A DNA stretch of 64,000 bases. Origin: a virus. Positions 203-64,000 of this stretch are shown one piece after another. The stretch lies in IMG/VR virus record IMGVR_UViG_3300035670_013228, positions 1 to 64,000 of that record, one strand, 5' to 3'. Position numbers and translations under genes: made by a program. Under the pieces are notes generated by a model that had not been told where the DNA came from, did not search any database, and saw only the letters and a program-made list of their open reading frames with translations. Numbering within the stretch: the stretch's first letter is position 1; every line of letters begins with the position of its first letter.

Positions 203-210
203 TCGAATTC

Positions 211-360: not shown

Positions 361-361
361 A

Positions 362-778: not shown

Positions 779-794
779 CCCCCTTTATAGGGGA

Positions 795-989
795 TCAGTG
801 AGAAAACTGAGCGTCATATTCCGATTCGAGCATCGCGTCATCCGCATGAATCGTTGCACGACCATCGGAACATTCGACCACCATCCGATCACCAAAGACC
901 TCGACCACCACACCACAGTATTCGGGCTGATCGAAAACAAACTCCCACACCACACGATCACCAACCGCGAACCCGTTTCCGTTTTCCAT
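795..989 (-). CDS. Small hypothetical protein, SH3-like beta-barrel (MENGNGFAVGDRVVW...)
   Basis: Start moved from 1067 to 989, after a leader variant AGAAAGAGAGAGCGAAAA. Shares F.VGDR with 362-547. Confidence 0.7.
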   Translation of the reverse strand: MENGNGFAVGDRVVWEFVFDQPEYCGVVVEVFGDRMVVECSDGRATIHADDAMLESEYDAQFSH

Positions 990-1024
990 TTTTCGCTCTC
1001 TCTTTCTTTGTTGTCCTATATATA

Positions 1025-1040
1025 TGCACACGCCGTGCCA
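1025..1040 (-). promoter_or_regulatory. Sigma54-like -24/-12 motif TGGCACGGCGTGTGCA
   Basis: One mismatch to TGGCACG-N4-TTGCW with correct GG/GC spacing; about 35 nt upstream of the ATG at 989. Confidence 0.45.
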
Positions 1041-1064
1041 TTCGAGAAAAAAAATACGATTTTC

Positions 1065-1272
1065 CATAACCCCTTGAAAAATATAGGGTTACAGCATTCT
1101 CAATTTGAGACGCGGTAAGGATCACTGTAGCATTTTGCGTCACACTGTAGCATTTTGCACAGCATTTTGCTACACCACCTTTGGGGTCATCATAAGTCGT
1201 TACAGAGTAAGCACTTACGTCGAGCGGGGCGGATCAATGTTGTCACAAGTCTAGTCCCCATAAACACTTAGG
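1065..1272. repeat. Structured repeat unit, copy B
   Basis: Three 11-7-11 imperfect palindromes (1065-1093, 1191-1219, 1244-1272), CATTCTCAaTTTGAGAC at 1095-1111, three GCATTTTGC copies, and a 24-nt spacer starting TCGAGCGGGGCGG as in copy A. Confidence 0.9.
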
Positions 1273-1366
1273 GGGTTTTTTCATTTTCTCGTGGTTTTAC
1301 AACACAGTCTCAAAAATCCCCAGGACATTCATAAGCAATACGGACTCAAAAATTTAAATGTATCAC

Positions 1367-31871: not shown

Positions 31872-32300
31872 ATGGCAGCAGAATATAGTTTTTCTATAGA
31901 AAAAGGAACAGCATTTGTTATTTCTTTTGAATATCAAGATAGTGTAAATAGTCCCATTAATTTAACCAATTGGTGTGCTAGATTAAGATGGAAAGACAAT
32001 AATAATAATATTAAATCTTTTGTGACAAATGTTAGAAATAGTGAATATGAATTTTCTTTAGAGCCATTATTAGGTAGAATAGTATTAAAAATACCAGCTT
32101 CTCAAACGGCGCTTTATAATTTTACTAGTGCTGTTTATGATTTAGAGCTTCAAGAACCTAATGACTTGTATAGCGGAGGCGGTAAAAAAGTTTTTAGAAT
32201 TCTTCAAGGTAATATTACTCTTATAGAAAGAAATGTTCCGGAGGGTAGTGCTTTTTCTTGTAGTTTTGACCAACAAGACGATTGCGGAACCTGTGAATGA
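31872..32300 (+). CDS. Ig-like/BppU-N-like virion adaptor (paralog of 13576-14004)
   Basis: YSFSIEKGTAF...INLTNWCARL...YDLELQ...YSGGG. Confidence 0.65.
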   Translation: MAAEYSFSIEKGTAFVISFEYQDSVNSPINLTNWCARLRWKDNNNNIKSFVTNVRNSEYEFSLEPLLGRIVLKIPASQTALYNFTSAVYDLELQEPNDLYSGGGKKVFRILQGNITLIERNVPEGSAFSCSFDQQDDCGTCE

Positions 32301-38300: not shown

Positions 38301-41300
38301 CTATTTCTGTCAATAATTTATTTTTTAAGCCCAATAGTGGTATACAATCATCATCTCAAGCCACGGGTTTGTTTAGTTGTAATCTAGACAGAAACCATGA
38401 ATATATTCTAGATAATAATACTATCAATAGGATACCCATAGTTTTTAGAAATACGATTAATAGATTTGGTAATATTGATACATCTGAATCTAACAGACCT
38501 AAAAATTATACTTTCGACATATTGAATATTAGTGGTAATAAAATATATGCTAAAGATAATTTAAACTATTTACTCAAAGAAAATAATAGACCATATTATT
38601 TAGATCAAGATATTAAAAGTAATTATACTACAAATGGTATTGCATTTAGTGGATCATTGTTTAAAAATCATCAATATATATATGATATTAGATATAATCA
38701 ATTTAATTTAGATAATATACAAAAACTAATTAATTTTAGATATAATTATCAAGATCAAAATATAGTACTTACTGTTCCTTCTGGATTTATTGTTCCTTAT
38801 GACTATTTGAAAATATCTTTTCCAACAGGATTTGACTATAGTAATTCTGTAATATCTGGATCTGTCACAAGGTCTTCTGTAATAAATAGTAACAATGTTG
38901 ATCTAGAACCAGACAAAGATCATATTTTATTAGAAACATCTACTAGTATAGATCCGTCTAGTAAGCTTATACAAATAAAATTACCAGCATCACTTCCTGT
39001 GACTTCTTCTAGAGCAGGAACTTGTGTAGTTAATAATAGTCCTATTAATAGACTACAATCCGGCCTATTGATTAATTATCAAAACAGTGACAGATACGGA
39101 TACGAAATAGATTCTATGAAAGATGGTTTTAGTTTTAGTGGTGTGGTTCCCAAAAATCATTCTGTTATATCCACAAATATTACTGGTCTTTTGGATTCTA
39201 ATCATATAGGACATGCTTCTATTTTTACTTCCGGTAATGCTCTATGGTACTCTGGAGCAAGAATTCTGAGACAAGCAAATCATAACGATATTGGATTTAG
39301 TGAATATTATCTTATCAATACAAATATTAGTAATTTAGCACCCGCTAATCTTAGCGGTGTCGGATCGTCTAGTTCTCCGTATTCATATAAAATAGCTTCT
39401 TCTGGTTATAGATATTTAGAATTTTTATACTTAGGACATAATACAAATAATATTAATATTACTGGAATATTAAGTATGGTTTCTGGTGCATTATACATAT
39501 ACCATACTAATCTAACAGAACAATTTAATCAGTATAGATCATTGATTGATCAGGACCTTACGGTTAAAGATACTCTTGTTTATAGTGGAATTAATATTAG
39601 TAATAATATTGGTTTAAGTTTGAACGTTAATAGATTTGATAAAATTAAGATAGAATTATTATCGACTACTGGTATTAGTAATTTTGATTTTAGAACATAT
39701 GTTTCATCTGATATTCTGATTAAACCGTATATATTAGAAAGTTCTGGTACCTTAAATTCTAACTTACCCTTTTATCCTTTCTTTAATCCGGATCCACCCA
39801 CAGTAGTTTATTCTCCACCAACATACTCTCCTATAACAGATCCAAAATATAATATTTTTACAGACACTAATTTTTACATTCTGCCGTATATCAAAGTTAC
39901 AAAACCATATTGTGAAGCAGAATATAATAAAAATCAACAACTATTTTATAACGGTAATATTATTGATTTATATAATTTTGATAGCATTAAATCTTATTTA
40001 TTGATGGGTGATGAGTTGGAAATTATAGATTTTAATAATACTCCTATATCAATCTCGGGAGATGTATGTAAACACATATTTAAGTTTAATCCTTCTAACG
40101 AAGAACTTATTGTTAGTGGATTATCTATAGATGGTGCTTTATCTATATCTCCAAAAATTTCTTCACTCTCAATAGAAAATAATTATAGACATAATATTCC
40201 TTTTGGATTATCTTATAATCAGCTTTTATCTAATACCGGAACAATACGTTTTGTTAAATGTAATTCCGGGAATATAGATGTATATGATTACAATAATTTA
40301 TTCTATCATACTTATGGTGGTACAACAGCGTCTTTCCCATTGGATAGTAGTGGCTCATACGTACAACCTCCACAAACTGGTTCATACAGAGTGATTTATG
40401 ATCCGGATTCTTGCATGTCTGGTACTCTTTGTGTTTTAGTATCGGGATATAGAATTAATGCCTTTAGTGGATTCCCAGATATACGTAATCGATCCAATTT
40501 TTATAAGACCACAAATATTATAGATAGTAATGGAGTAAAAGGAGCTATTAGACCATACGGAACAGATAAAAGAATGTTTTTTGATTTTAATGATGGATTT
40601 CCAGAAATAAGTGACTTTTATTCTGTTGAAGACTTGATACAACCCAATATGCTTTCTATAAAAATACCATATAATAGTAACTACATTAATAAATCTGGTT
40701 TAGTTTTAATTATAGACAGTCATCAGAATATAAAAAGTCATTTAAATCCAAATCTCGACAACTCTTTCGTCACTAGTTCTGCAACATGTAATATAACTCC
40801 TTCAACAATTTTTAATTATTATGATAGAGACGCAAAAAGATGGAAACACACAGTTCATTTACAAGGACAACAACCAGCGTTTGGAGGATATGATCTTTTA
40901 TTATCTGGCAAATCTAGTAAATTGTATTCTATAAATCCAGAACCTATACAAATTTCAGGTATATCATATAGCATAGATGATGGTAATACTTTTTATACTA
41001 TTACTAGCGGATTGACTATTCCGGATAATCTATCCGAATTAACACTTAAAATTACAACATTACAAGGCGACCAACGACTTTTTGAACAAGATCAATTATC
41101 AACTCCTAAAGTTTCTATTTCTGGTTTAAGTAATTACTATGTGGAATTTAATGAACCTGGATTATACGGATGGCATGGCAAGGGTTGGAATATAGGAGTT
41201 AAAATAACAACTCCTCCTCCCAAAATTTATTCCAACAAAGATATTATACTAAGAGTAAAAGATCTTACCGGATTTGATCAAAAGACAATAACCCTAAATA

Positions 41301-44300
41301 AAAGAATTATTCCCGAAGTTAAGCCATTTGCCACAGGATTTGTACTTAATGGTAGCTCATGGCAACTAGGCTTTGATGTTACAAAAATAGATATAGAAGA
41401 TAAATTATTTAACAACGAAATCAGTGTCGATGTAATCGATACTCCTGTCTCCAATAACTATCAAATTTTACATAGTGATAATAAATCAATAGTAGTGGGT
41501 GGTAGTACAGTTGGTGCTACTACCGGTATATATTATCCTAAAATTATTTTGACAGATATTACTACATCTCCGTATACTATACTGTCTAGTGGTTCCGGCG
41601 CTCTAGTTGTTGGATCATCTATTACACAAAAACCACAGTATACTATTCAATTAAATAATTTACAATCCACATACTATTTTGATCTTACTAATCAGTCTGA
41701 TCTTATGTTCGATATTCCTGCGGATCTTGGTCCAGAACCTAATCAGGTACTTAACAATCTAATTATTACATTTAATAATGATATTGCTTACTCCTTAATT
41801 ATTGATTCTTCTTCCTATAATTATGATACCAAAAGAATAGAAGTGGTTGCTACTCCAACAACAACAGGAAATAATCCTGGTTATTATAACCAACCTAATA
41901 AATTTATTAATCAATCTGTTAGTATATCTATCAAGCAGCCAGTATACGATAACTTTGGTAATTATACATATCAAACATATAATAAAACTGCTGGATTTAA
42001 TACTGTATTTTATAAACCGGTTGGTTTTCAGCCAATATCTCAACTATCAACTATTCCTTTTAACATTACTAGTCCTTGGTCTATAGAATTTTATGTATTG
42101 AGTGGTATTTGTCAATTTGATCCTCAATCACAACCTAATGTTAGCATATTTAATACTCCTAATATTGGAAGCTATGAGAATACTCCTATAGAATATAATC
42201 TCGATTATGATTATGATAATATTTTGAAAAAATGGAAAGTTACAGCCTCTTCAACTAAAGATGTTTTTAATAGGTACATAGATCAAACTGGAATATATCC
42301 TATATCTATTTATATAGATGATGATTTTTCTAGTTTTGTAACAAATAATAGTTTTAGTATTAGATATAATCCTGTTACTAAGATGAAAAATATTAATAAT
42401 ACACTATATAGTACTCCTGATAGTATTTTTTATACCAAGGTAGATATCGAAGATACTCTAGAAAATACCACAGATTCTATATCTTTTCCGCCAACGCTTA
42501 AAGAGAGTAGTATTACATTATTATTTAATAAGACAATAAGAAAATATGATACGGATTTAAATATATGGCAAAATTCTTATATTTCAGATAATATGACAGA
42601 TAAATATGATGCTCAGCTTAATATAGAAAATAATATTTTATCTGTTAGCTGTCGAGGCATAGGAAACGATAAAATTATCGCAGTTGCAAAATTAAATACT
42701 ATGGAAATAGAAAGCAACGAACTACAAGGTGTTCCTCTTACTATAACTGGTGTTGCTGGATATTCTCCCGGAGGTGCGATAGAGGTTGAACAAGGAGAAG
42801 ATCCTTGGATACTAACTTTTAAAACAATTGGAGGATTAGCGCATATTAATTATCCACCAACTATTATACTAGAGAATATGCCAACTTTTTGCTCCGGATT
42901 TAATCCTTTAATAGATAATCAATCGCAATGCGCAAAAACACCAGTATGGAATCCTAACGACATGGGTGGTTCGTGGTCTTATATGTTTTCTGGTATACCA
43001 TCTTGTACGCTTCTTGGTCTAAAACCATTCTCTATTACCGCCATAGATACAGATCCGTCCCTACTACCATCTTCACCGTATTTGCCAGACACAGATTACC
43101 TAGAATATGCTTTTGAATATACCGCCGGATCTTTTTCTACGGGCGAACCGCCCCAGATAGTACCTGCTGAAGGAGGTAATGATATTATTAAACCTTTGTG
43201 TAATGTGTTGTATACTAAACAAATTGATTTTGGACCAGTTCTAGAAACATCTTTGTGTGGAGTCGGTCCTACCGGCATCAAACTAATAAATATTAGCGGC
43301 ACACTACCTTCTGGTTTATCATATACAGTATTTTTCCCCGAAGAACTAAATTCTCCTGTGGCCCCATATTCTAATTTGAGTAGTGGATATTTAAGAATAG
43401 AAGGCTACCCATTAACTTTTGCTAGTGGTGGTGCATATTCAGAAAATATAACTCTTAAAATAACAGACGCTAGAAATCTATCAACTTCCTTAAAAATAGA
43501 GTTTACTGATAGTTCTACACCAAATGATCCTGATATTAGTGTCCCTATTTATTTTGATACCGATGAATTACTACTCACCCCATCTACTGGAACAAAAATT
43601 GTTACTGCCAATACAGTTAATGTATGGAGACCATCTCCATCTCCAGAGTCTTTAGTTTGTAGAAGTATATTGCCACACAATAAATGTCAGACTACACAAG
43701 TATTTTATTCTGGTTTTCTCTCTTTAGATACTCGCATATATTTAACTTCTTTGGATCAAAAGGTACCATTGGCTGTTCAGGATGATATTTATATAAGTTT
43801 TGAAACACCAAATGATAATAATAATGGTGCTTATACATTAATGGAAAATGAAAGCGGAATTCATATTCTAGGAAAGGTCAGTTTAATATCTAGTGCTACA
43901 GGCATAGCTAATTTAGTTTTAGCAGACTATAAACAGTTAAATATTTCTAATTTTAATACATTTTTCCAAGGATCTATTATAGATAATACTACTTATTGTT
44001 TACTTGGTGGCGGAAGAGCAAAAATGGACAGCACAGGAAAACGCGGATTAATGGGCTTAATAGGACCGTCTTATAAAGCAAGTATAACAGGATCAACCTT
44101 TTTTGATAGTAGTAATTCTAGACTGAGTGGTCTTGAGCTAACAAGAATAAATACTCAACTGCCACAGTCCTCCTTTGTTTCATGGTCAGACTGTTGGCAA
44201 ACAGGAAGATTATATATAAGTGGTATCGTGCTACCCTCCATAAATGCCGAGATAACGGATCCGCCTCCTGCACAAAATAGATTATTTACATTTAACAATC

Positions 44301-45694
44301 TTGTAGAATCTTTATTTCCTCGTCTTGCTTTTGGCGATACAGAAACACAGAAAAACCTAATAGAGAATCAGAGATCAAAGACACTAAATTATTTCATTAA
44401 AGATCTTATATCCGGAGTTAATATTTCTGAAGGTGCAACCTCGCCAGGCAATCCGTTTTTAACACCAATATTAAATAGAAATTCTGGTACTGTTTATCAA
44501 ATTAAAATATGGAACGATGCAGATATTTTTCCGACATATAATTATCAAGCTATTCCATATTCTGAAAACGAATATATTTGGATTCATAAGGGAGATTTAT
44601 TCAACACTTTACCATCTCAAAAAACCTTTCCCCCTATCATTACGCACGGATTTGATAGTATTTCTGTAATTAATGATTTGGATGATCTTGATCCGAATGG
44701 TACAGTTATGGATCCAGTTTATGGTATAGCTATTGGGGGATATGTTCCAACAGATGATGGTATAGGAATACAAATTCCCTATTCACACACAGGAGTACCG
44801 AACAATGCTTCGCCTTGGTCAGTCACTAATTATAAGCCAATTATTAGTGGTATAATGCAAAAATCTTTATATCCAGCCGGTACAGAGGTAGAAAAAGTAG
44901 ATACTATAAACAATGAATTGGTAATAAAAAATAATAACATTAGTTATAATGTGGATGATCAATGGTGCATAGATAAAAATAATTATATCTCTACGGCATT
45001 GTATTTCTTAGATAATCCTGGAGAAATTTTTGTTTCATCTGGTAATAATACATTTATATATTTACAAAATACCGATTCAGCTACCGGATGGCTTAAAACA
45101 TTTTCCTCTGGAGATATAGTATTTCCATACCAAAATATAGAAGATGATAATATAAAAATTATGCCTTATAATATAGTATATAATGCAGAGGGTAGATTTA
45201 CTTTTCAGATCACCGGCAGATGTAACACTAGAGAAAATGAAGATTTAGTATACAAAATTGCTACTATGGAAAATCCAAACATGCCCATCTTTGATAAGAT
45301 AACATATCCATCATTAGATTTTATACCTAAAAAATATTTTCAAAACTATCCACTTTATGTTAATAAATCAATTCAAATTATTAATAATAGTGTAATAAAA
45401 ACAAATAATTTGTTATCCTTTAATATATTGGGTGGGGAAAGACCCATAAATAAGAATTTTCCAGATATACAGCTAGCCGCTGGTATTAATGGAGATTTCG
45501 GATATTGTGGGTTTTGGCGTAATACCACAGGTACCGGAAATACTATTGTGGATGAATATGATTCAATAAATGATAGACTTAATATTAAACTCATATTAAG
45601 TTCAGATTATGGTATTAATTGGTCTGCTTACGATACGATTAAAATCAAGGTGACAGACAGCACAGGATCAGACACACTGATCTATTCTGTTTAA
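32297..45694 (+). CDS. Giant 4465-aa virion fibre/adhesin
   Basis: Uninterrupted 13.4-kb ORF. Collagen G-X-Y near the N-terminus, two L[DN]ADLLD.QHG.[FY]Y fibre motifs, a cadherin-like repeat (~35960-36160), and a dystroglycan-type cadherin/He_PIG repeat (~36170-36455). Confidence 0.8.
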   Translation: MNQISIKEISPEYKYLLISQKDDSETISSTRLVISDNYTNRISFVNISQGEKGDTGPVGPQGPPGQDALSFTVLSIGSGGTNNTNYSSGNILFFDGTKITTTEYSIQDILDEAQTGANAITGILAGSGIHKIQNGNNVTLNTKIGDGLQIDANNAIIVDNSIARISDLTAGSIEGIIPISKGGTNNNFYTQNRLIYFDGFSLKSFPLSTGNFLFSGVAVNIVAGSGLIGGGSLSIPSGSIVINIPQSADILVEENSVSLTPTGTPGTYSKIVTDSKGRVIQGSNLTNADIIQILGYTPFHAGNDGIGSNLDADLLDGQHGSFYRDASNVTGILNTTVLPSSVEPGTYTKFTVASNGLISGVFFANQNDIISSLGFTPVSSTGTKNILGTTNLNGDVNINGELSIYDNLPILSTNNSSILPDTPRGISFIYGGLFTTKTGIIAYYPAEDQLKLVTNIFASGADTDGGGNQDDLNGGNAESIFLLQNLDGDASTVLLREIADSLYVKLNADEDINGIKFFNDSIFFRKPPVQISNPIGNTNPPLVIGGNTIKVSSLNADLLDDQHGFYYRNASNITGAFSYNNVTFDHIEGTHNFIPRFNDTINDPAGRISDSNLYQDNSGNIRTNDEINVIIGTSNPKTSINTLTVGVGHIVDGDNNLVVGTNNIVSGNNSIALNNSCIVDANNSIAAHSYGRAYVSNQMALGAFLTKDDTNKDLEHGQNTSINMHLPGTQAGNTWSALTPTITIPENKTFAYNVDVLISRAFGTGVAQYRFDSGIFKNATFRDSNNVFTVVNVTTQPQLAKKNEVFNNSQIRNHFHTFEHTNGSRQLQEIRTTHPPLQYNPVITENTQSSYFYTKIHKQCSGTYYKTNHGDLVLDVNKPIYSGIVNLSENTYGIKIISKNHGVRTNSNVNLLFENVTGSLLPLINDNYNVFSVINQDTFFVEQPYYSGYITYSSGLNTDFATITVDNKSISAIDTKYLSSGINATLTNNTISNLSDNNFIRNLRLDTPIIIQSGSYFFNRLVKNYNSNTIVINDPIATGTGSQQYVILNGLMKIYHIDFSFNLFKKSSKFLAKTSVDGDQIITASSTGAIANFQGSNIFGDNIYNFPIIESFYTTGNALLQTYQNTHARTGLDYTSKPTIVLENIPIPKRSSYGSGIPVRIAPLTNNSGSVFLSHKQTINGSFSYNTTQFNPYRSVYKKYDNNHMMVYYTGIDKSLNLPFTPITYELVDGFNSADNDFFSLVNINDKYYLQTTNVFNYETKNIYNIRIKAMDRKSKNFLEKSFTITVNNTTSPYSLYNIPNQEVYIDNLFDYTILSGVFNEEENGGPLSYSAKLQDGRDLPYWLFFNSNTTRFTGVPSYCDLGTYNIRVFASNNADTISKDFFIRVKDPTFETLSYENNFDTTITNITLSSDNINENLISGTIFSELNAIGSYHPYIEFLTGENSFTGTFSQNSDIVECFNRFVSYPTTIISGTAGLLRKNSSISVPANLGLSGLIATNVYKPFALTGTPALSNGNIFLTNAYNDYTDTFFSGLQIQTDHPFLPRFFTTKFFTDYYANVGARQALALETKEDDVWRDLILAENNDVIVLTHSPLTNTLLSTELRELLATNKIPLTDDEENDILIANDRLTHNTIWSVPYTGCNNGLIVDDQIILSTSRNSLINRSNIDSLLELHNTNNPSGLSLMSGSFDIEVEQWYIRDSIYNPVLSLYGFGSPDFCTLLTEDNIDLLSSESAAPSHILSNNEKDHGSRVILDNSYEILDSKYAVKDNGKLLANSVFDDLICENQDNLVHDYAIASRSGHLTILYPGHRQNYITLTFPKIEYHRFLTENEELFNDQIGNILTTESRKISYDFSYAWGKLIPFDLFSNRYFIRMNKKYLGSNTTSLVTYSETLPINNNYSISGLKQYSYVSQSGDCPVITFITGVGGFESTTYSTGNYITGVVDLYTEPGTGTITLNFNKDINLDSRDTNNLYLYNFTSTNSNLQLPVIGQYTDISILDSNTISVNNLFFKPNSGIQSSSQATGLFSCNLDRNHEYILDNNTINRIPIVFRNTINRFGNIDTSESNRPKNYTFDILNISGNKIYAKDNLNYLLKENNRPYYLDQDIKSNYTTNGIAFSGSLFKNHQYIYDIRYNQFNLDNIQKLINFRYNYQDQNIVLTVPSGFIVPYDYLKISFPTGFDYSNSVISGSVTRSSVINSNNVDLEPDKDHILLETSTSIDPSSKLIQIKLPASLPVTSSRAGTCVVNNSPINRLQSGLLINYQNSDRYGYEIDSMKDGFSFSGVVPKNHSVISTNITGLLDSNHIGHASIFTSGNALWYSGARILRQANHNDIGFSEYYLINTNISNLAPANLSGVGSSSSPYSYKIASSGYRYLEFLYLGHNTNNINITGILSMVSGALYIYHTNLTEQFNQYRSLIDQDLTVKDTLVYSGINISNNIGLSLNVNRFDKIKIELLSTTGISNFDFRTYVSSDILIKPYILESSGTLNSNLPFYPFFNPDPPTVVYSPPTYSPITDPKYNIFTDTNFYILPYIKVTKPYCEAEYNKNQQLFYNGNIIDLYNFDSIKSYLLMGDELEIIDFNNTPISISGDVCKHIFKFNPSNEELIVSGLSIDGALSISPKISSLSIENNYRHNIPFGLSYNQLLSNTGTIRFVKCNSGNIDVYDYNNLFYHTYGGTTASFPLDSSGSYVQPPQTGSYRVIYDPDSCMSGTLCVLVSGYRINAFSGFPDIRNRSNFYKTTNIIDSNGVKGAIRPYGTDKRMFFDFNDGFPEISDFYSVEDLIQPNMLSIKIPYNSNYINKSGLVLIIDSHQNIKSHLNPNLDNSFVTSSATCNITPSTIFNYYDRDAKRWKHTVHLQGQQPAFGGYDLLLSGKSSKLYSINPEPIQISGISYSIDDGNTFYTITSGLTIPDNLSELTLKITTLQGDQRLFEQDQLSTPKVSISGLSNYYVEFNEPGLYGWHGKGWNIGVKITTPPPKIYSNKDIILRVKDLTGFDQKTITLNKRIIPEVKPFATGFVLNGSSWQLGFDVTKIDIEDKLFNNEISVDVIDTPVSNNYQILHSDNKSIVVGGSTVGATTGIYYPKIILTDITTSPYTILSSGSGALVVGSSITQKPQYTIQLNNLQSTYYFDLTNQSDLMFDIPADLGPEPNQVLNNLIITFNNDIAYSLIIDSSSYNYDTKRIEVVATPTTTGNNPGYYNQPNKFINQSVSISIKQPVYDNFGNYTYQTYNKTAGFNTVFYKPVGFQPISQLSTIPFNITSPWSIEFYVLSGICQFDPQSQPNVSIFNTPNIGSYENTPIEYNLDYDYDNILKKWKVTASSTKDVFNRYIDQTGIYPISIYIDDDFSSFVTNNSFSIRYNPVTKMKNINNTLYSTPDSIFYTKVDIEDTLENTTDSISFPPTLKESSITLLFNKTIRKYDTDLNIWQNSYISDNMTDKYDAQLNIENNILSVSCRGIGNDKIIAVAKLNTMEIESNELQGVPLTITGVAGYSPGGAIEVEQGEDPWILTFKTIGGLAHINYPPTIILENMPTFCSGFNPLIDNQSQCAKTPVWNPNDMGGSWSYMFSGIPSCTLLGLKPFSITAIDTDPSLLPSSPYLPDTDYLEYAFEYTAGSFSTGEPPQIVPAEGGNDIIKPLCNVLYTKQIDFGPVLETSLCGVGPTGIKLINISGTLPSGLSYTVFFPEELNSPVAPYSNLSSGYLRIEGYPLTFASGGAYSENITLKITDARNLSTSLKIEFTDSSTPNDPDISVPIYFDTDELLLTPSTGTKIVTANTVNVWRPSPSPESLVCRSILPHNKCQTTQVFYSGFLSLDTRIYLTSLDQKVPLAVQDDIYISFETPNDNNNGAYTLMENESGIHILGKVSLISSATGIANLVLADYKQLNISNFNTFFQGSIIDNTTYCLLGGGRAKMDSTGKRGLMGLIGPSYKASITGSTFFDSSNSRLSGLELTRINTQLPQSSFVSWSDCWQTGRLYISGIVLPSINAEITDPPPAQNRLFTFNNLVESLFPRLAFGDTETQKNLIENQRSKTLNYFIKDLISGVNISEGATSPGNPFLTPILNRNSGTVYQIKIWNDADIFPTYNYQAIPYSENEYIWIHKGDLFNTLPSQKTFPPIITHGFDSISVINDLDDLDPNGTVMDPVYGIAIGGYVPTDDGIGIQIPYSHTGVPNNASPWSVTNYKPIISGIMQKSLYPAGTEVEKVDTINNELVIKNNNISYNVDDQWCIDKNNYISTALYFLDNPGEIFVSSGNNTFIYLQNTDSATGWLKTFSSGDIVFPYQNIEDDNIKIMPYNIVYNAEGRFTFQITGRCNTRENEDLVYKIATMENPNMPIFDKITYPSLDFIPKKYFQNYPLYVNKSIQIINNSVIKTNNLLSFNILGGERPINKNFPDIQLAAGINGDFGYCGFWRNTTGTGNTIVDEYDSINDRLNIKLILSSDYGINWSAYDTIKIKVTDSTGSDTLIYSV

Positions 45695-49705: not shown

Positions 49706-52078
49706 ATGGCTATTTTATTTTTTGATGGATTCGACAGATATACTATTCTTAAAGATTTTGATCGTAATTATTGGTCATACGAACCATTAGATATTGTAGA
49801 TTATGAAAAATATGCTTTTGGAGGATATTCGTATAATCATAGCGAAGATTCTTATAGTGCTGGATCTTCCGAGTTTATGGAATATATGACCGGATACTAT
49901 TCTTTTTATTCTCCAAACGGAGCCAGATTACCATCTGGTATATTTAGGGATAATATCGAAAATAGTTTTAATGGTATTTATATTAGTGGAAATAGTTATC
50001 CGGGGTTCGGATCACCACCAGGATTTTTATCCTTACACAATCTTAATATAGCAGATCCTAATCTTTTAGCCCCTATAACTTATGTTCAACTTAGTGGTTT
50101 CTCATTACCGTCTAGTGGTCAAAGTTTTTTATCCACTAGAATTCTTGGCATAGAAACTAAGGATAGTTCCTATCATAATTCTGATAAAAATGGAAGATTT
50201 GAATATAAACATCCTTTGGTTGCTTTTTGTAGTGGCAATACAACAGGACTATTATTAAGTATTATTAAAACAACCGGAAATCATTTGTCTCTGATAGAAA
50301 ATAAAAAAATGACTATCGGGTTAGAAGTATTTCAAAATAATGGCATTAGCGGTATTTTTGATTTGAATATAACCAATGACCTAAATAAATATAGAATTAG
50401 ATCGTTATATTCTACCGTTAATGGCTATACATCTGGCATTTTAAATGATAGAATTTTGCTGATAGATAAAAATTTATCAGAAGGATTTGATTACGAATAT
50501 GGATCGGAAAGTGTTCCTATAACGCCCATATCTAGATGGTGTCATTTTCAATTTGGAATTATACAAAGCGGTTCGGATCCATATATCCAAGTAAAATTAG
50601 ACGACATAGATTTATTATCTATTCCTGTCGATACCAACTTATCTGATAAAGATTTATGGGACGATAAAATTTATATAAGTGGATTTGATTTTAACAATAT
50701 TAGATTTTTTAATAGAACATATAATGGATCTATACAGTATGCTACAACTAATACAGAAAATATTGGAATTAGTAGATACTATCTTTATGGAGCTGTAACG
50801 TTATTGGATGATATTGTACTTTCAGACGGTTCTGGTGTTCCTAATACTTTTTTGGGTTCTAATACTAAAGTAATACCATTTACACCCGGCGTAAGTGCTA
50901 ATACTTCTACTAATGGAGTTTATAGTGACGGCTTAACAGAATGGAGTGGCAATACTTCTTCTACTAGATTAGCTTTAAAAAATTTAGATGGAGATAATGG
51001 CAAAATATTTTCTTCTGTTTCTGGTGCCATAGCTGCTGTTAGATATACTAATTCTAATATGATGATACCAGACTCTAATTCGCTCTTTAGAATGCAAACA
51101 GAAGATGCTATAGGTGGAATAAAAGTATATGCACAAGCAAAAAAAGAATTTTTAGATAGTAGATATTCCGTAGTTTTAAGAACAGGCATATCAGATCCAT
51201 ACTCTATTGATAATAAAGTATTTTTAGACTTTGAAACATCATCTAATAATACTATTATAGATTTGTCAAGAAATAGATATGTTTTTACAAAATCTGTACC
51301 AGAAATAGAATTATCTAATATAAATAAATTTGGAGATAAAAGTTTAAGACTACTAAGCGGACAATATCTCTCAACACCTTCTGTGGAATTACAGAATAGT
51401 TTAACTTTAGAATGTTGGATTAAACTTTCTGGATTAAATAATAGCCTAACTCTATTTCACAGATTTGCACCAATAGGTCTAACAACAATTTCACCTAATT
51501 TAGTTGTTAGTACTGGTAGTATAAGTTATAACGCTTTCTATTCCCAGTTCGGCACTGGACAATTAGTATTGCGCTTTCCAAATAGCGGAATACAAGATAC
51601 CGACTGGCATCATGTTGCTTTGGTATCCGATACTTCTAAGGTTGTTGTATTTCTTGACGGAATATCAGGAACTTCATATAGCGTATTTTCTAATGCGGAT
51701 CTATTTGGAAGTAATACATCATTAACTAATTCTTTATATTATTGGTCGTCCACTTCACCATATAATAATTCTATTAAAAACTTTACTAGTAGTGCTAGTT
51801 TAGCATCTTTATTCACATATATTTCTGGTAACGGATATATAGACGAATATAGAATTACAAATACACAAAGATATAATACTAATTTTATTCCTCCAAGTGC
51901 TATTCTTACAGAAAGAGATGATTATATAACAATTGGTGATCCTCAAAATATAACACGTACAAGATATGGTAAAGTATATCAATTTTATGAATATGTGAAT
52001 CCTTCAACAGATAGTCCCTGGACAACCGGTTTAATAGCTAATCCCAGCGGATTTATACTAGGTGTTAAAAAATTATGA
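49706..52078 (+). CDS. Virion protein with C-terminal LamG domain
   Basis: MAILFFDGFD N-terminus; LTLECWIK...DWHHVALV...VFLDG...GYIDEYRITN..RY..NF.PP; NPST.SPWT C-terminus. Confidence 0.75.
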   Translation: MAILFFDGFDRYTILKDFDRNYWSYEPLDIVDYEKYAFGGYSYNHSEDSYSAGSSEFMEYMTGYYSFYSPNGARLPSGIFRDNIENSFNGIYISGNSYPGFGSPPGFLSLHNLNIADPNLLAPITYVQLSGFSLPSSGQSFLSTRILGIETKDSSYHNSDKNGRFEYKHPLVAFCSGNTTGLLLSIIKTTGNHLSLIENKKMTIGLEVFQNNGISGIFDLNITNDLNKYRIRSLYSTVNGYTSGILNDRILLIDKNLSEGFDYEYGSESVPITPISRWCHFQFGIIQSGSDPYIQVKLDDIDLLSIPVDTNLSDKDLWDDKIYISGFDFNNIRFFNRTYNGSIQYATTNTENIGISRYYLYGAVTLLDDIVLSDGSGVPNTFLGSNTKVIPFTPGVSANTSTNGVYSDGLTEWSGNTSSTRLALKNLDGDNGKIFSSVSGAIAAVRYTNSNMMIPDSNSLFRMQTEDAIGGIKVYAQAKKEFLDSRYSVVLRTGISDPYSIDNKVFLDFETSSNNTIIDLSRNRYVFTKSVPEIELSNINKFGDKSLRLLSGQYLSTPSVELQNSLTLECWIKLSGLNNSLTLFHRFAPIGLTTISPNLVVSTGSISYNAFYSQFGTGQLVLRFPNSGIQDTDWHHVALVSDTSKVVVFLDGISGTSYSVFSNADLFGSNTSLTNSLYYWSSTSPYNNSIKNFTSSASLASLFTYISGNGYIDEYRITNTQRYNTNFIPPSAILTERDDYITIGDPQNITRTRYGKVYQFYEYVNPSTDSPWTTGLIANPSGFILGVKKL

Positions 52079-54435
52079 CAGTACTTAGCAAAAGACTACA
52101 ATATTCTAATAATGACTTTTTAATATATCAACACTTTGTAAATACTGAAACAGAAACTTTTTTCTTAGCCAATGAATCACCAAACGAACCGGAATATCCA
52201 CATGTTTATGTTGGTTATTACAGTGGCATACCTCTATCACCATCTTTAGATGAAGATAATAGTATAGCTTCTCTACAATCTGGATACTATTCTGTTGTTT
52301 TATTAAGTAGATTCGGTATACCTAGAAATACTTTGATTGCTTGTAATATAAAAGCTAGTTACGAAAATGATATACTTAATAGAATAAGCTCCAGCAATGT
52401 TATATTAAATATAAAACCATTTGCTCAAAATAATAATAATTATGATATTAATGACTATAGAAGCGCTGATAAAATATCGAATACTATAAATGATAATGTT
52501 TCTAATAAACTTTTTGAAATTTATACTTTAAATTCTTTTACAGGATTGAATTTTAGTTCAGCATGGTCAAAAAATACATACGGGGTTATTCATTTTAATG
52601 CTTCTGGATCGTCATCTGGTATAAAAAATATCATCATTGATTATGTAGATTTAGTTTATAAAGCTAGTTTACCATCAGCACCTATAAATCCAGCAGCATC
52701 CGGATCCGATTCTTCCGCATATCTTAGTTGGTTTGAGCCGCTGGATAATGGTGGAGATAATGTTATATATTATGCAATAAAATATACTGATACTACAACA
52801 AATATTTCTAATACCATTACGACTCCATCTAGTGGAACCAATTTTTTTCTATCGAATTTAACTAATGATAATGCGTATGTTTATAGGGTTGCTGCGGTTA
52901 ATAATGTTGGTACGGGTACTTATTCAACAGAATCCAATATTTTTATTCCAGAAAAAATTCCACTGCTATCCGCATTAAATTATAATAGTGCTAATTATAC
53001 AAGAATCAGACTTCGTAGAGATACATCTGCCAATTGGTCCGATATTGATCCTATATTAGCCTTAGGAGAAGCTGGTTTCGAAACAGATACTAGATATTTA
53101 AAAGTAGGTAATAATGTATCTCCATGGAATAATTTAGATTATATTAGAGTACCAAATAGTTCAATATCTTTTCCGTCTCCTCCACAAATTATTTTACCGA
53201 TAGGTGATTCATTAACAGTTTCTAATCCAAGAATTAATTGTAATTTATCTAATAGTGAACTTTTAAATATTATCGGTATAGATGGTATAAATATAGAGTA
53301 TTTCACAAGTAGCAACTCTATTAGAATTAGTTTAGATAAGTCATTTTCTCCCTTCAACTCCGGTACATTAGCTAGTCCTAATAGCGTTGGAAGACCCGGA
53401 GAAGTATATTATGATGAACAATTTATGTATGTTTGTGTTGGAATAAATTTATGGAAAAGAATTTTATTGGATACTAATTATTGGTTTAATCCAAATAATA
53501 TGGCCATATCTAACAATTCCGGGTTTTATCCCAGCATAACAAATATTACGACTTCTGGTACTAATATACAGTATACTAGCGACGGCGATCCATATCCTGC
53601 TAAATCATCGAACAATATGACTAATGACGGCATATCTCCAAGATCTGCATTCTTTAATAACTATACTATTAGTGATCAGAGCTACACACTATCTTTTAAA
53701 TACAGGGCCGGATATAACTTCTCAGACCCTGAGATAGCCACTTCGGGGTATAATGGAATATTAAATAATGGAGTTCTTGTATCAGCACCTTCGGCTAAAA
53801 ATGAAACTATTGGCCCATTTGTTGCCCCATCCGGATTCAATTTTAATCGAAGTTTTTTTAGTAACTTTTTTGTAATAGATAATTGTGGAGGATATGTTAA
53901 TTCTAGTGGATTATATGCTTATTATGATGGAAGATTTTTAAAGAACTGCTGGAATGATAGTAAAGTATATAATAGTAACACATATTATGCATTATCTTCA
54001 TATAGCGGCGATAACTTTAGACATTCAGACGGTCATTCAAAAATTTTAGGATTTTGTTTTGATGGATATCCAATATATGGTCCATTTGGATACGAAGATC
54101 CAACTGATGATAATAGTTCTATATTATTATTAACCAGTTCATATTTAGTGTACGATAATGATAATCATAGACCAAATAATTGGAAATATAGTAATAGTAT
54201 TACTGTTAATAACTTTAACTATGTATTAGTTGGAGGAGCTTTTATTCAAGATTTTTACTATGCTCAAAATTCTGGTATATTAGATCAATATAATGGTAGA
54301 TATACTATTACTCCAGACTTTCCTCAAGGTACTTATGCATACTTTTTAACATTTACTAACAGCGGTTTGCTAATACCACAATATCCGTATATAGTCGGAA
54401 ACTATAGTCGTAATCAAAAATTAAAGGTATTATAA
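52075..54435 (+). CDS. FN3 + internal Mtd-N-like + degenerate YHYH-domain protein
   Basis: FN3 at about 52670-52940; IRLRRDTSANW..IDPILALGEAGFETDT..LKVG; DGHSKILGFCFDGYPIYGP...LDQYNGR....PDFPQGTYAYF...YPYIVG. Confidence 0.75.
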   Translation: MTVLSKRLQYSNNDFLIYQHFVNTETETFFLANESPNEPEYPHVYVGYYSGIPLSPSLDEDNSIASLQSGYYSVVLLSRFGIPRNTLIACNIKASYENDILNRISSSNVILNIKPFAQNNNNYDINDYRSADKISNTINDNVSNKLFEIYTLNSFTGLNFSSAWSKNTYGVIHFNASGSSSGIKNIIIDYVDLVYKASLPSAPINPAASGSDSSAYLSWFEPLDNGGDNVIYYAIKYTDTTTNISNTITTPSSGTNFFLSNLTNDNAYVYRVAAVNNVGTGTYSTESNIFIPEKIPLLSALNYNSANYTRIRLRRDTSANWSDIDPILALGEAGFETDTRYLKVGNNVSPWNNLDYIRVPNSSISFPSPPQIILPIGDSLTVSNPRINCNLSNSELLNIIGIDGINIEYFTSSNSIRISLDKSFSPFNSGTLASPNSVGRPGEVYYDEQFMYVCVGINLWKRILLDTNYWFNPNNMAISNNSGFYPSITNITTSGTNIQYTSDGDPYPAKSSNNMTNDGISPRSAFFNNYTISDQSYTLSFKYRAGYNFSDPEIATSGYNGILNNGVLVSAPSAKNETIGPFVAPSGFNFNRSFFSNFFVIDNCGGYVNSSGLYAYYDGRFLKNCWNDSKVYNSNTYYALSSYSGDNFRHSDGHSKILGFCFDGYPIYGPFGYEDPTDDNSSILLLTSSYLVYDNDNHRPNNWKYSNSITVNNFNYVLVGGAFIQDFYYAQNSGILDQYNGRYTITPDFPQGTYAYFLTFTNSGLLIPQYPYIVGNYSRNQKLKVL

Positions 54436-59958: not shown

Positions 59959-62900
59959 ATGGCAAAAGGTTTTAATCTTACGGCCGAAATTAATTTAAGA
60001 GGACCATCCAATATTAGACAAGTTGTCTCTGATATTAGAAGACAACTTGGTACTATAGACACAAATATTAATGTGACTCTTAATGCTCAAACAAATAAGC
60101 AAATATCTACTCTAGATAGAAGTTTTAAAACGTTTAATAATACTTTGTCTCAAACTAGGGCATTAAGTGATTCTACAGCAAGATCATTAAGTCAATTAGG
60201 AAATGCAGCAAAAACCCTAAGTTCATCTTTACAGACCATTCCTCAGACTATGACGCAAATATCTCAAGCCGCAACAAAAGTGGCGACAGATAATAATAAA
60301 GCTAAAGTAGCTACTCAACAAATGTCAACAGAATTTGCTGAATTTGGAAGACAATCAGCATTGGCAGTAAGAAGATTTGCCGCATTTGCTACTGTAACCG
60401 GTGTTATATTCAAAGTTTCAAATGCTATTAATACTGCTACTAAAGATTTTGTGGATTTTAATAAAGCTCTTGTGCAAGTTGCTCAGGTAACAGATGCCCC
60501 GGTCTCCTCTCTTGATTTTTTGGTGAATAATATAACATCTTTATCCACTAAATTGGGAGTAGCATCCAAAGATCTAATAGAGGTTTCTAGAACTCTAAGC
60601 CAGGCAGGATTATCTGCAAAAGATACTTCGGCAGCATTAGAAGCATTGGCGCTGAGTACATTAGCTCCGTCTTTTGATGATCTCAATAATACTGTAGAAG
60701 GTAGTATTGCATTAATGAGACAGTTTAGTATAGGGGCCGGAGATCTTGGAAGCGCATTAGGTAGTATCAATGCTGTTGCCGCTAAGTTTGCTGTAGAAGC
60801 CGGAGATATAGTTACGGCCATTCAGCGTACTGGTGGTGTGTTTGCAAATGCAAGTAAAGGAGTTAGCGAAGGTACGGATGCTCTAAATGAATTTATTGCT
60901 GTTTTTACTAGTGTTCGTGCTACAACACGCGAAAGTGCTGAAACTATCGCTACTGGCTTAAGAACTATTTTTACTCGAATCCAAAGAGAAGAGACAATAA
61001 ATGCTTTAAAGGGATACGGAGTAGCTCTTACTGATCTAGAAGGCAAATTCGTTGGACCATATGAGGCTGTTCGTAGACTAGCTCAGGGACTAAGTCAACT
61101 AGATCCAAGAGAAATTAGATTTAGTAGAATTGTGGAAGAGCTAGGCGGTTTTCGCCAAATTGGTAAAGTTATCCCACTTATTCAACAGTTCTCTACTGCG
61201 CAACAAGCGTTGTCTGTTGCTCAAAGAGGATCTAGCTCTTTAGCTAGAGATGCTGTAACAGCACAATTAAGTTTAGCTAATCAAATAACTAAAGTAAGAG
61301 AAGAATTTACTGCATTAATCAGATCTATAGGACAAACAGAAGGATTTAGAGATATTGTAAGATTAACTTTGGATCTTACTAGTAATTTAATAAGAATAGC
61401 AGATGCGGCCAAGGGTGCTTTGCCAGCACTAACAGCCATATTTGCTATAAAGGGTTTTCAGGCATTAACTCAATTTGGTACTGGATTTTTAAGTGGAATA
61501 CGTAGAGGCAATAATAGAGGATTATCTACTGGCGGTAAAGTACTATCATTTTCTCAAGGAGGAACCGTTCCCGGTAGCGGAAGAGGAGATAAAGTACCAG
61601 CTTTATTAGAACCGGGCGAAGTTGTAATGAGTAATCGGGCTGTTAGACAGTATGGTAGAGGTAATTTAGTAAGAATGAATAAGTATGCTGATGGCGGATT
61701 ACAGTATAATCAAAAAGAATCTACAGTAAGGGCTCATGCTATAGATCCAAAGAGATATGGTAGTAAAATAACTAAAAAAGAATATCTGGCACTATCTGGT
61801 AAGCGTAGTATCGGTAAAAAAATACAAAGCATTATTAATGGACGAGATTTAGAAGTTATTCCAAACTTTACAATAGCTTTGCCAGAATCTTTTAATAGAG
61901 CAATGAGAAGAGGTGGTTCTGGAAAAATACCTTTACCAGAATTTAAAAAGGCTCTTGATTCGCCATACTTATTATACGGTTCTAATGCAGAAAAGCTTAG
62001 TGGTAGAACTAAACGACAAGGTATCGGCAATATTCCTGCTAAAACAGTACAAGAAATTAGAAAGGCTTTCAAAGCAGAGGTGGATAGAACAGCCGAACCA
62101 CCTGCACCAGGATATATTAGTAGAGATGAGCAAATTTATAGATTCGCTGATATCGCTAAAAGCATATTAACTAGAGAAAAATTATGGAAATCAAGACCGC
62201 TGGAAATAATGTCTAGATCTTCCACTAGTACTGGAGGTACTCAATCCAGAGATTTTGTTCCAAAAATGATTGCACAACAATTTAAACCATTTAAGAATGG
62301 TGGAATTGCTAGTCGTCAAATTGGATATATAGATTATGATGTTATAGCTAATCCAGCTAATGAAGCGGTAGTATCTAAAGGAATGGAAGCTACCGGAGTA
62401 ACCGGCCCAAGATTATATGCTGATTACTTAACAAATCTTGCTGTTAAGCGTCGCAAAGAAGCCGGATTAGAAAAACTGCGAGCAATCTATGGAGTTGCCG
62501 GAGCAGGAAAAACTACACTTGCTCGAGGACAAGGCACAGACAAAGCATCATTAAGAGAAACAACAAGATTTCCAATATTAAGTCCAGAAGATATAAATAA
62601 AGCCAGTGAGGTTATAGTATTAAGTAGTAGTGTATCTCAGAAAAAACTTGACGAAATATTTAGTAATGTTGATAGAGCATATACTCTTAGCACAACAACA
62701 GCATCAGAAAAAGAAAGAATTAAATCTCAACGGGAGTCAAGAGATACTACAGGAATAGGATTAGAAGGAAGAAAACCCGGTGGTACAATTGGTATAGAAA
62801 ACGATACTGCAATTAGCGAAGCTTTATTATCAGATAGATTGGGTAAAAAATCTGTAGTATTAGGACGCTCATCTAGTGGCAAACTAAGACGAAAAACCGG

Positions 62901-64000
62901 AAATGAATTAGTAGAAGTTGTTAAGAAAAAAATAGGAGTAGCTTGGGGAGGTTTTGCTCCTATGACATTAGGTCACGAAAGTATTGTTGATAGTGCAAAA
63001 GCTATGGGTATAAGTCCAGAGGACTTCTTGTATATCGTTGGTAGTAATGAGGCAATCAAACTTGGAGACGCATCTTCGTATAGAACAGCAATTTTTAATC
63101 AAGACTCACGAGTACTATTAGCAAAAGCTGGTGCAGGAGCAAAAGGAGCAACAGTTTTACCAAAAGAAAAAGGATTCGAAATACCTTTAGGATTTGATAT
63201 AGGAGAATCTGGTGCTGATAGAAGAAAAGTATTATTACCAGGATCCGGTAGCGTTGCTTTTGTTGGCGACGAAAAATCAGAAGAAATATTACAAAAATAT
63301 AGAGATGCTGGCTACAAAACAAAATCCATAGGACGTATGGGCGATATTAGTGGAACAATGGTTCGAGATCTTATATCTCAGGGTAATTTAGGAGAACTAC
63401 AAAAAGTATTAAGTCCTAATGTTTATGAACTTATTAGTAATAATATTGGACGTATTCAAAATCGTGCTAATATTTTACCCAGTTTGATAGAACAAGTACA
63501 ACAAAGTCAAGCAGTTAAGTTAGCTGACGTTGAAAAACAAATAAAAAGTGTTGGTATTAGCAGAATTGATCAAAAGAAAATGAGCGATCCAGAATATGCC
63601 GCTAAGGCGGAGGCTTTATTAGAATTAAGAGCTCTTAGAGATAAAATTAAAAGCTCAGGATCATTTGAGCCATACAAACTATTAGATAGGTTAGCAGCCG
63701 ATCAACCAGAAAAGTACGGCTTAGACTTTACATTATCTAAACAAACCGAACCAAAACCAATAAGAACTGTTGGTCAACGACAAACTGCTAGTTTAGGAGG
63801 ATTAATTCAAAAATTAGCCGAAGGTGGAACAGTAGAAAGTATCGCTGCTAGAGATCAAAAATCTATTGAAGCTGTAGTGCTGGAACAATTGTCCAGCTTT
63901 GGAAATGCTAGTGGAGTTAAAAAAATATTAGGATTAGGAGCAGGAGACAGAGAGGCTAGCGCCATATTAAATGCTGGTAATATTAAAGCTGGTAAAAATA
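59959..64000 (+). CDS. Tape measure protein with C-terminal enzymatic cargo (at least 1347 aa, truncated by the window; not in ORF track)
   Basis: Translated by hand with no stop to the window end. TP901-type core (TRESAETIATGLRTIFTRIQ), GGTVPGSG.GDKVPALLEPGE.V motif, Walker A GVAGAGKT at aa 845, GGFAPMTLGH at about aa 997-1006, ISGTMVR at aa 1130. Confidence 0.9.
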   Translation, partial: MAKGFNLTAEINLRGPSNIRQVVSDIRRQLGTIDTNINVTLNAQTNKQISTLDRSFKTFNNTLSQTRALSDSTARSLSQLGNAAKTLSSSLQTIPQTMTQISQAATKVATDNNKAKVATQQMSTEFAEFGRQSALAVRRFAAFATVTGVIFKVSNAINTATKDFVDFNKALVQVAQVTDAPVSSLDFLVNNITSLSTKLGVASKDLIEVSRTLSQAGLSAKDTSAALEALALSTLAPSFDDLNNTVEGSIALMRQFSIGAGDLGSALGSINAVAAKFAVEAGDIVTAIQRTGGVFANASKGVSEGTDALNEFIAVFTSVRATTRESAETIATGLRTIFTRIQREETINALKGYGVALTDLEGKFVGPYEAVRRLAQGLSQLDPREIRFSRIVEELGGFRQIGKVIPLIQQFSTAQQALSVAQRGSSSLARDAVTAQLSLANQITKVREEFTALIRSIGQTEGFRDIVRLTLDLTSNLIRIADAAKGALPALTAIFAIKGFQALTQFGTGFLSGIRRGNNRGLSTGGKVLSFSQGGTVPGSGRGDKVPALLEPGEVVMSNRAVRQYGRGNLVRMNKYADGGLQYNQKESTVRAHAIDPKRYGSKITKKEYLALSGKRSIGKKIQSIINGRDLEVIPNFTIALPESFNRAMRRGGSGKIPLPEFKKALDSPYLLYGSNAEKLSGRTKRQGIGNIPAKTVQEIRKAFKAEVDRTAEPPAPGYISRDEQIYRFADIAKSILTREKLWKSRPLEIMSRSSTSTGGTQSRDFVPKMIAQQFKPFKNGGIASRQIGYIDYDVIANPANEAVVSKGMEATGVTGPRLYADYLTNLAVKRRKEAGLEKLRAIYGVAGAGKTTLARGQGTDKASLRETTRFPILSPEDINKASEVIVLSSSVSQKKLDEIFSNVDRAYTLSTTTASEKERIKSQRESRDTTGIGLEGRKPGGTIGIENDTAISEALLSDRLGKKSVVLGRSSSGKLRRKTGNELVEVVKKKIGVAWGGFAPMTLGHESIVDSAKAMGISPEDFLYIVGSNEAIKLGDASSYRTAIFNQDSRVLLAKAGAGAKGATVLPKEKGFEIPLGFDIGESGADRRKVLLPGSGSVAFVGDEKSEEILQKYRDAGYKTKSIGRMGDISGTMVRDLISQGNLGELQKVLSPNVYELISNNIGRIQNRANILPSLIEQVQQSQAVKLADVEKQIKSVGISRIDQKKMSDPEYAAKAEALLELRALRDKIKSSGSFEPYKLLDRLAADQPEKYGLDFTLSKQTEPKPIRTVGQRQTASLGGLIQKLAEGGTVESIAARDQKSIEAVVLEQLSSFGNASGVKKILGLGAGDREASAILNAGNIKAGKN

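Follow-up and report, generated by a model that had tools for sequence, protein, structure and literature searches.

A kinase–nucleotidyltransferase block carried as optional cargo in a giant phage tape measure protein

The window analysed here comprises the first 64,000 nucleotides of a viral record of 70.8 kb (IMG/VR record IMGVR_UViG_3300035670_013228), which is approximately 47% complete and has a guanine-plus-cytosine (GC) content of approximately 32%. An open reading frame (ORF) at the end of the window encodes a giant tail tape measure protein (TMP), in which a P-loop kinase-like domain, a HIGH-superfamily nucleotidyltransferase domain, and a helical tail form one block downstream of the TMP core (Table 1). 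The host protein of the block is a TP901-family tail TMP, as an original prediction from the sequence had assumed. Residues 192–383 of the ORF match PF10145 (2.9e-22, 80 bits against a cut-off of 33.2), residues 153–496 match TIGR01760 (4.4e-25, 88.4 bits against a cut-off of 28.8), and several PHROG TMP families also match the ORF (7.7e-23). Terminase and tail-fibre genes lie upstream of the TMP gene.

The first codon past the FKNGG linker, nucleotide 62305, is the start of the block that had been predicted, and all of the motifs quoted in that prediction are found at the coordinates given for them, with TLGH ending at the His1006 named there. Two AlphaFold2 models, built with an alignment of 18–20 relatives, cover residues 765–985 (pTM 0.81), with the DxD strand packed as part of the P-loop domain, and residues 820–1190 (pTM 0.82). 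In these models, the kinase half is a full P-loop kinase-like domain. The fold therefore agrees with the original prediction, but the suspicion that this region is short and possibly degenerate does not, since the domain comprises approximately 200 residues (aa) and has the DxD pair in all members examined. Conservation was counted in a local alignment of 114 family members, which have diverged to approximately 30% identity. GxFxPxTxGH is retained by 112 of these sequences, the Walker A pattern GxxGxGK[ST] by approximately 105, and ISxTxxR by nearly all, and the DxD pair, situated on a strand approximately 55 residues ahead of Walker A, is found in 115 of 115 members examined. Because the catalytic motifs are kept across the family and the fold is confident, the motif match is far beyond chance. 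As judged from the alignment, strong purifying selection acts on the catalytic motifs of the kinase as well as on those of the transferase, and the block apparently holds two intact, active ATP-using enzymes. The helical tail is conserved in 66 of 98 long relatives.

Table 1. Features of the tape measure protein, its kinase–nucleotidyltransferase block and related elements. Positions are window nucleotides unless stated otherwise.
Feature	Nucleotides	Residues of the ORF	Strand	Remarks
TMP ORF	59959..64000		+	Runs past the window end and off the record (L002:960-11810); minimum length 3,617 aa
TP901-type TMP core	60406..61458	~150-500	+	PF10145 and TIGR01760 matches
FKNGG linker closing the preceding cargo block	62290..62304		+	xFxxGG conserved at the same place in the relatives' alignment
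P-loop kinase-like domain	62305..62913	783-985	+	AlphaFold2 model mc455ddcfc9fb, mean pLDDT 86; zeta toxin match; DxD and Walker A kept
DxD strand GYIDYDV	62323-62343		+	Inside kinase-like domain
Walker A GVAGAGKT	62491-62514	845-852	+	
Arg-rich lid region, conserved		R928, R938		Kinase-like domain; R938 invariant
HIGH-superfamily nucleotidyltransferase domain	62914..63483	986-1175	+	AlphaFold2 model m473718bde2b4, mean pLDDT 87; structure and profile matches
KIGVAWGG		991		Transferase domain
TLGH	62965-62976	1003-1006	+	Transferase domain
IFNQDSR		1045		Transferase domain
AFVGDEK		1100		Transferase domain
ISGTMVR	63346-63366	1130-1136	+	Transferase domain
Helical tail of the block	63484..63801	1176-1281	+	Long helix ending the model; SLGG linker at its end
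HAD-like motifs	L002:5337-5360 and ~5526 (record nt 64336 onward)			Beyond the window end
Tail-fibre/tailspike anchor motif copies	14254-14430, 16167-16330, 53000-53150			Last copy at aa ~310-360 of the ORF at 52075-54435
Bearers with an upstream ADP-ribosyltransferase				P0113, P0026, P0003, P0005, P0023, P0028, P0013, P0062, P0043, P0055, P0081

When 1.84 billion cluster representatives were searched exhaustively with phmmer, 96 clusters (50% identity) matched the kinase and the transferase together as one unit, and nearly all of them are TMP-like giants of 2,000–7,300 residues. With the TMP core as the query, 1,785 related giants were retrieved, and 12 of the 120 closest cores (58–77% core identity) are accompanied by the block. 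The block as a core part of the TMP was rejected on the remaining 108. With so few bearers, the segment from 62305 to ~63800 is regarded as optional cargo of a polyvalent TMP, in line with the cargo idea of the original prediction. In 108 of 108 relatives having both, the block lies downstream of the core. It is conserved almost like the core, with median identities of 60% for the kinase, 56% for the transferase, and 67% for the TMP core. Searches for stand-alone or cellular homologues (the phmmer search and a profile search over lengths of 183–1,047 residues) returned only TMP-like giants or fragments on contigs below 7 kb. A search of GenBank phages with the TMP gave distant TMP-core matches only and no cultured relative. 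In one distant relative (L017:5251-12002), the TMP core is a separate gene of 666 residues and the block is situated in a gene of 1,333 residues two genes downstream; fusion of the block to the TMP is thus not obligatory.

The neighbour on the upstream side of the block varies among its bearers. Of 113 bearers, 11 have an ADP-ribosyltransferase (ART) domain, PF03496, immediately upstream of the block, and their modules share 44–78% identity with that of the window; the match is best in P0113 (1.2e-6) and weaker at L004 (0.013; L004:2281-3000). At that frequency, the ART was rejected as a regular neighbour. On the other side, a motif set like that of haloacid dehalogenases (HAD), of the DxDxT type, lies approximately 270 residues past the block in the same ORF (IDFDETL at aa 1460 and ILTARP at aa 1523); a Pfam scan of this segment gave no match. 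Since no more than 42 of 132 bearers have the HAD-like domain, which differs among them in its distance from the block and in the side on which it lies, it is not a fixed partner, and a fixed triad of kinase, transferase, and HAD was rejected.

The transferase model contains the HIGH-type, Rossmann-like fold that had been predicted. Its top match in VIA-align is Mycobacterium tuberculosis NadD (Z 13.7, 152 aa, root-mean-square deviation (rmsd) 2.5 Å), together with the nicotinamide mononucleotide (NMN) adenylyltransferase (NMNAT) of Methanocaldococcus jannaschii (Z 13.7, 155 aa, rmsd 2.8 Å), followed by NadM (Z 13.4) and phosphopantetheine adenylyltransferase (PPAT; Z 13.2, 144 aa, rmsd 2.5 Å). 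Enzymes acting on NMN or nicotinic acid mononucleotide (NaMN) account for 14 of the 16 best matches (Z 9.9–13.7). TmcAL, cytidylyltransferases, FAD synthetase, and ATP sulfurylase come next, at Z 8–10. In addition, PF01467 is aligned end to end at 17.4–18 bits, against a gathering cut-off of 21, and likewise at full length in 5 of 5 related genomes (15.3–19.3 bits). Because this profile is spanned completely yet below its cut-off, the transferase is taken as an outlying member of the superfamily. The nearest viral look-alikes are cytidylyltransferase-like and NMNAT proteins. The domain is accordingly assigned to the NMNAT/PPAT clade as a HIGH enzyme of the adenylyltransferase type, with several candidate substrates.

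At the level of sequence, a search of the PDB sequences with a single sequence gave no match. With the family profile, the best single match is MJ0951 (UPF0348, TmcAL family; 2.4e-4, local), and the sole full-length matches are NadR-type NMNATs, 9x6f (0.0022) and 6gye (0.0095). In hhalign, single Escherichia coli NadR aligns over 168 columns (score 36.1, E 7e-4, probability 26%), CoaD over 56 columns (score 31.4), and NadD with a score of 19.9. The NadR-type matches of the transferase are weak (E 7e-4 to 1e-2), and the NadR/NadM-type model NF005988 gives 11 bits against a cut-off of 201.

The MJ0951 match bears on a different kind of function, in which the HIGH domain, like TmcAL or citrate-lyase ligase, would adenylate a small acid and ligate it to RNA or protein, and the kinase would resemble polynucleotide kinases; in this way, tRNA, RNA or DNA ends, or a protein would be repaired or modified at infection. 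Several observations agree with such a modifier of macromolecules. PF16581 matches 14 of 20 members (best 4.2e-5) and Citrate_ly_lig 4 of 20 (3.2e-5). The alignments with TmcAL chains (Z 9.5–9.8, 174–175 aa) include the long C-terminal helix. Polynucleotide kinases are found among the matches of the kinase model (4gp6 at Z 6.2–7.4; T4 polynucleotide kinase at 2.2e-4 in Foldseek), and the HAD-like domain is situated in the same protein. However, the TmcAL and MJ0951 matches are local, comprising ISGT and the helix after it, and stand 4 Z units below the NMNATs. Furthermore, RNA ligase PF09414 was searched for in five related records, three complete genomes (150–238 kb) and two partial ones, and was found in none, and the scattered occurrence of the HAD-like domain also speaks against it. 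We regard a modifier of macromolecules as quite unlikely.

The best structural match of the kinase model is the zeta toxin of Neisseria gonorrhoeae (6epg; VIA-align Z 8.1, 153 aa, rmsd 4.0), the alignment of which spans the DxD strand. It stands 1.8 Z units above the next row (6.3), and zeta toxins are the only Foldseek matches at probability 1.0. Nucleoside monophosphate kinases, polynucleotide kinase, AvrRxo1, and dephospho-CoA kinases crowd at Z 5–6.3, with AvrRxo1 among the matches at Z 6.2–7.7. AvrRxo1 is a zeta-like kinase acting on NAD, and the substrates of the zeta toxin/AvrRxo1 family are nucleotide-sugars and NAD.

Such a likeness could mean a host-poisoning or hijacking effector, whose kinase would phosphorylate a nucleotide-sugar or dinucleotide that the cell cannot do without, such as UDP-GlcNAc or NAD+, while the transferase helps to make or modify the substrate, shutting down cell-wall synthesis or metabolism at entry. 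The agreement with zeta toxins extends over the N-terminal extension of the kinase domain, and accessory cargo in a polyvalent protein would suit this role. However, Z 8.1 is at a level that the tool calls possibly a mere common arrangement of the chain, a sequence-level comparison of the kinase with zeta toxins gave no match, and there is no antitoxin context. A poisoning role also leaves the obligate fusion to a transferase, in every member, unexplained, and the few injected copies would have to act catalytically on large pools. An effector of this kind appears rather improbable.

The setting of the block resembles that of polyvalent proteins. Polyvalent proteins, known from phages and conjugative elements (Iyer et al. 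2017; PMC5512222), are giant polypeptides with disparate enzymatic domains, the content of which varies between close relatives. The present family shows the same traits, with a kinase and a transferase here, ARTs in relatives, a varying upstream neighbour, and a minority of closest cores bearing the block. A term search of that paper gave no mention of TMPs, and the nucleotidyltransferases described in it belong to the Pol-beta superfamily; the carrier described here is a TP901-type TMP, and its cargo is a metabolic-type enzyme pair. Delivery together with the DNA is proposed there for polyvalent proteins. By analogy with this presumed mode of entry, the accessory, shuffled distribution of the block in a virion protein fits cargo that accompanies the DNA, and the block probably enters the host with it.

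From the folds, conserved motifs, TMP context, and accessory distribution, a substrate, a mode of delivery, and a benefit may be proposed as follows. The transferase would join AMP from ATP to a phosphorylated small molecule, generating an ADP-linked dinucleotide, with NMN or NaMN to NAD+ as the leading candidate. The kinase could phosphorylate the precursor, following the logic of NadR (riboside to mononucleotide), or the product, following that of AvrRxo1 and dephospho-CoA kinases (a ribose hydroxyl of the dinucleotide). Both enzymes need ATP and would thus act in a cytoplasm. This would be the cytoplasm of the newly infected cell once the TMP is ejected, and possibly that of the producer cell as TMP precursors accumulate. 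The pay-off might be a supply of NAD+ that counters defences depleting this cofactor, or that serves effectors consuming it, for instance the ART domains located next to the block in some relatives. NAD+ formation is ranked first among the functions, as a tentative choice that stands well short of an even chance, because of the NadR-type sequence kinship, the prevalence of NMNATs among the structural matches, the recurrent ART neighbours, and the strong selection for NAD+ restoration known in phages (10.1101/2024.02.11.579819; PMC13464706).

The following points weigh against NAD+ formation. PPAT is statistically tied with the NMNATs in VIA-align, which blurs the subfamily, and it comes first in Foldseek (2.7e-6, TMt 0.67), ahead of an archaeal NMNAT (1.1e-5), at probability 1.0. 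When 20 members were compared with NCBIfam and Pfam, the matches below cut-off were distributed about equally among PPAT, NadD, NadM, FAD synthetase, citrate-lyase ligase, and TmcAL-type models; this vote had no winner and was rejected as a means of deciding the subfamily. In the 114 members, G, A, N, or S occupies the position at which the G(K/R)F motif has its basic residue. NadR chains, present in the structure library, lie outside the 50 best matches of the kinase model, and hhalign of the kinase with NadR aligns 17 P-loop columns and nothing beyond. Past the P-loop, no likeness of the kinase to the ribosylnicotinamide kinase (RNK) of NadR was seen. The ART adjacency concerns approximately 10% of the bearers and not the protein of the window, where a different, rare block occupies that place.

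The gene neighbourhood points in the same direction. Nampt/NAPRTase (PF04095) and a second PF01467 gene were found in none of the three complete related genomes, and PnuC (PF04973) in none of the three complete and two partial related records, the window's own record being 47% complete. Moreover, NADases yield nicotinamide and ADP-ribose, which a riboside kinase and an NMNAT alone cannot recycle. Since each virion contains only a few TMP copies, an injected enzyme alone would hardly refill a millimolar NAD+ pool against an active NADase. The rescue of NAD+ proposed in the original prediction is not supported in that form, given the absent basic residue and the missing PnuC and Nampt in the complete relatives. 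If NAD+ is the product after all, rescue at entry may count for less than NAD+ made locally for effectors injected alongside, or than the activity of the many precursors that are still unassembled in late infection.

Part of the same evidence favours another ADP-linked cofactor. Here, the pair would work as a CoA synthase, with a PPAT-type transferase making dephospho-CoA and the kinase acting on its 3'-OH like dephospho-CoA kinase (DPCK), or it would convert FMN to FAD, and the product would feed co-delivered acyl- or acetyl-transferases or phage metabolism. Eukaryotic CoA synthase (PPAT and DPCK) likewise joins a HIGH transferase to a P-loop kinase, which there catalyse successive steps. The transferase agrees with CoaD in GxFxPxTxGH and ISxTxxR. 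The TxGH form, with Thr instead of His, is that of PPAT, and the small residue in GxF is PPAT- or NadD-like. In addition to the structural tie and the first place of PPAT in Foldseek, dephospho-CoA kinases occur among the kinase matches (Z 5.1–6.1), FAD-synthetase models match 6 of 20 members (best E 0.001), and RibF-type chains align at Z 7.3–9.0.

Compared with CoaD, however, the transferase is approximately 30 residues longer, with an inserted beta-hairpin region, and the sequence matches are local only, the PPAT alignments covering the first 25–70 residues. The PPAT model TIGR01510 gives 11.8 bits, far under its cut-off of 103.3. The kinase is not detectably DPCK-like past the fold; hhalign with CoaE matches the P-loop only, and no further likeness to CoaE was seen. 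To our knowledge, no CoA- or FAD-depleting defence exists as a selective reason, which also counts against another cofactor. This alternative is considered unlikely.

With regard to NAD+ formation, the closest known system is that of 9x6f, which is Bas30_86, a NadR-like enzyme of the phage NARP3 pathway that rebuilds NAD+ (PMC13464706; also 9x6h). As in NadR and Bas30_86, a HIGH adenylyltransferase and a P-loop kinase are joined in one phage polypeptide, and with Bas30_86 the block shares the Thr in TxGH (FAPLTRGH in Bas30_86) and the pattern RT..ISxTxxR. However, the order is reversed, with the kinase first, whereas in NadR the RNK is C-terminal to the NMNAT. The kinase of the block has an extra DxD strand, is nearer to zeta toxin, and shares the P-loop alone with RNK. 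The block also lacks the GKF lysine, and K10 of Bas30_86, the basic residue in G(K/R)F(x)P, was shown to be essential (PMC13464706). Relatives of the block are without the PnuC partner gene of NARP3, and the matches to NadR are under every curated cut-off. Furthermore, the block is situated inside a virion TMP, whereas Bas30_86 is a free early enzyme. The NadR-like pair of the original prediction is thus retained in part. NadR-type NMNATs are the best full-length sequence matches, if weak, but because the kinase is nearest to zeta toxin and NadR is outside its top 50, "NadR in reversed order" applies at best to the transferase half.

The full reading, in which the virion would deliver a working cofactor unit that supplies NAD+ before phage gene expression and blunts NAD+-depleting defences or fuels co-injected ARTs, is given a probability of about 0.2. 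Delivery itself has an alternative, in which the activity of the block would be confined to the producer cell, for example to tail assembly or to metabolism by a late-expressed enzyme that happens to be fused to the TMP, or in which the block would be trimmed off the virion protein or lack activity there. Enzymes that depend on ATP have no use within a virion, and TMP precursors are abundant late in infection. The separate block gene in the distant relative agrees with such a role, and the GG-bounded blocks suggest proteolytic processing. However, the block occurs almost only in TMP-like giants, with fragments on short contigs as the sole stand-alone candidates, and this restriction is hard to explain unless virion association matters. 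The strict conservation of the catalytic motifs also disagrees with an inert passenger. Action confined to the producer cell, or no action at all, is considered very doubtful.

TMPs are regarded as rulers and channel formers, with motifs of cell-wall hydrolases at most. In the large clade of uncultured phages described here (genomes of approximately 150–240 kb), they carry enzyme cargo that is interchangeable. A pair of metabolic-type enzymes recurs in this cargo and, as it depends on ATP, requires a cytoplasm. A literature search found no paper on a TMP with an adenylyltransferase; NadR-like phage enzymes and polyvalent proteins are already known, and their combination in a TMP was not found in the literature. 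If NAD+ or another cofactor is made at entry, virions would be able to carry biosynthetic enzymes, and this would constitute a new delivery mode for phage counter-defence. In the case of NAD+, such pre-packaged reconstitution would be unlike NARP1-3 in timing and delivery. Independently of what it does, the block represents a branch of its own at the margin of the HIGH nucleotidyltransferases, together with an unclassified kinase with an invariant DxD strand.

Several other features of the locus were noted. Modules of the pattern D/G-x-V/I-P-A-x-L-x-P-G-E-x-V recur in the TMP ORF, at window position 61588 (aa 544) and at record nucleotides 66967 (aa 2337) and 70318 (aa 3454); these PAxLxPGE-type modules and the xxGG linkers at block borders may be processing or packing signals. 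A further cargo block of the same ORF contains a zincin-like HExxH motif, YHELTHQ, at aa 1944 (record nt ~65788), and a segment resembling it is found in 31 of 132 relatives. Directly before the TMP gene lies a pair of genes of approximately 100 and 290 residues, likewise present ahead of the homologous gene in relatives (loci L019-L021). In a PHROG search of the seven genes ahead of the TMP, the six nearest gave no match, and the farthest (52075–54435) matches tail and virion-structural families.

That gene contains one copy of an N-terminal tail-fibre/tailspike anchor motif of approximately 50 residues, which is common to three structural proteins (phrog_697, phrog_38417, phrog_27786, and others). 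A second giant ORF, of 4,465 residues, lies on the plus strand at 32297–45694, within the structural region and between tail-fibre-like genes and the tail module. At the opposite end of the window, positions 1–2000 have a GC content of 42%, against approximately 31% elsewhere in the window, and a minus-strand ORF is situated at 1367–2485.

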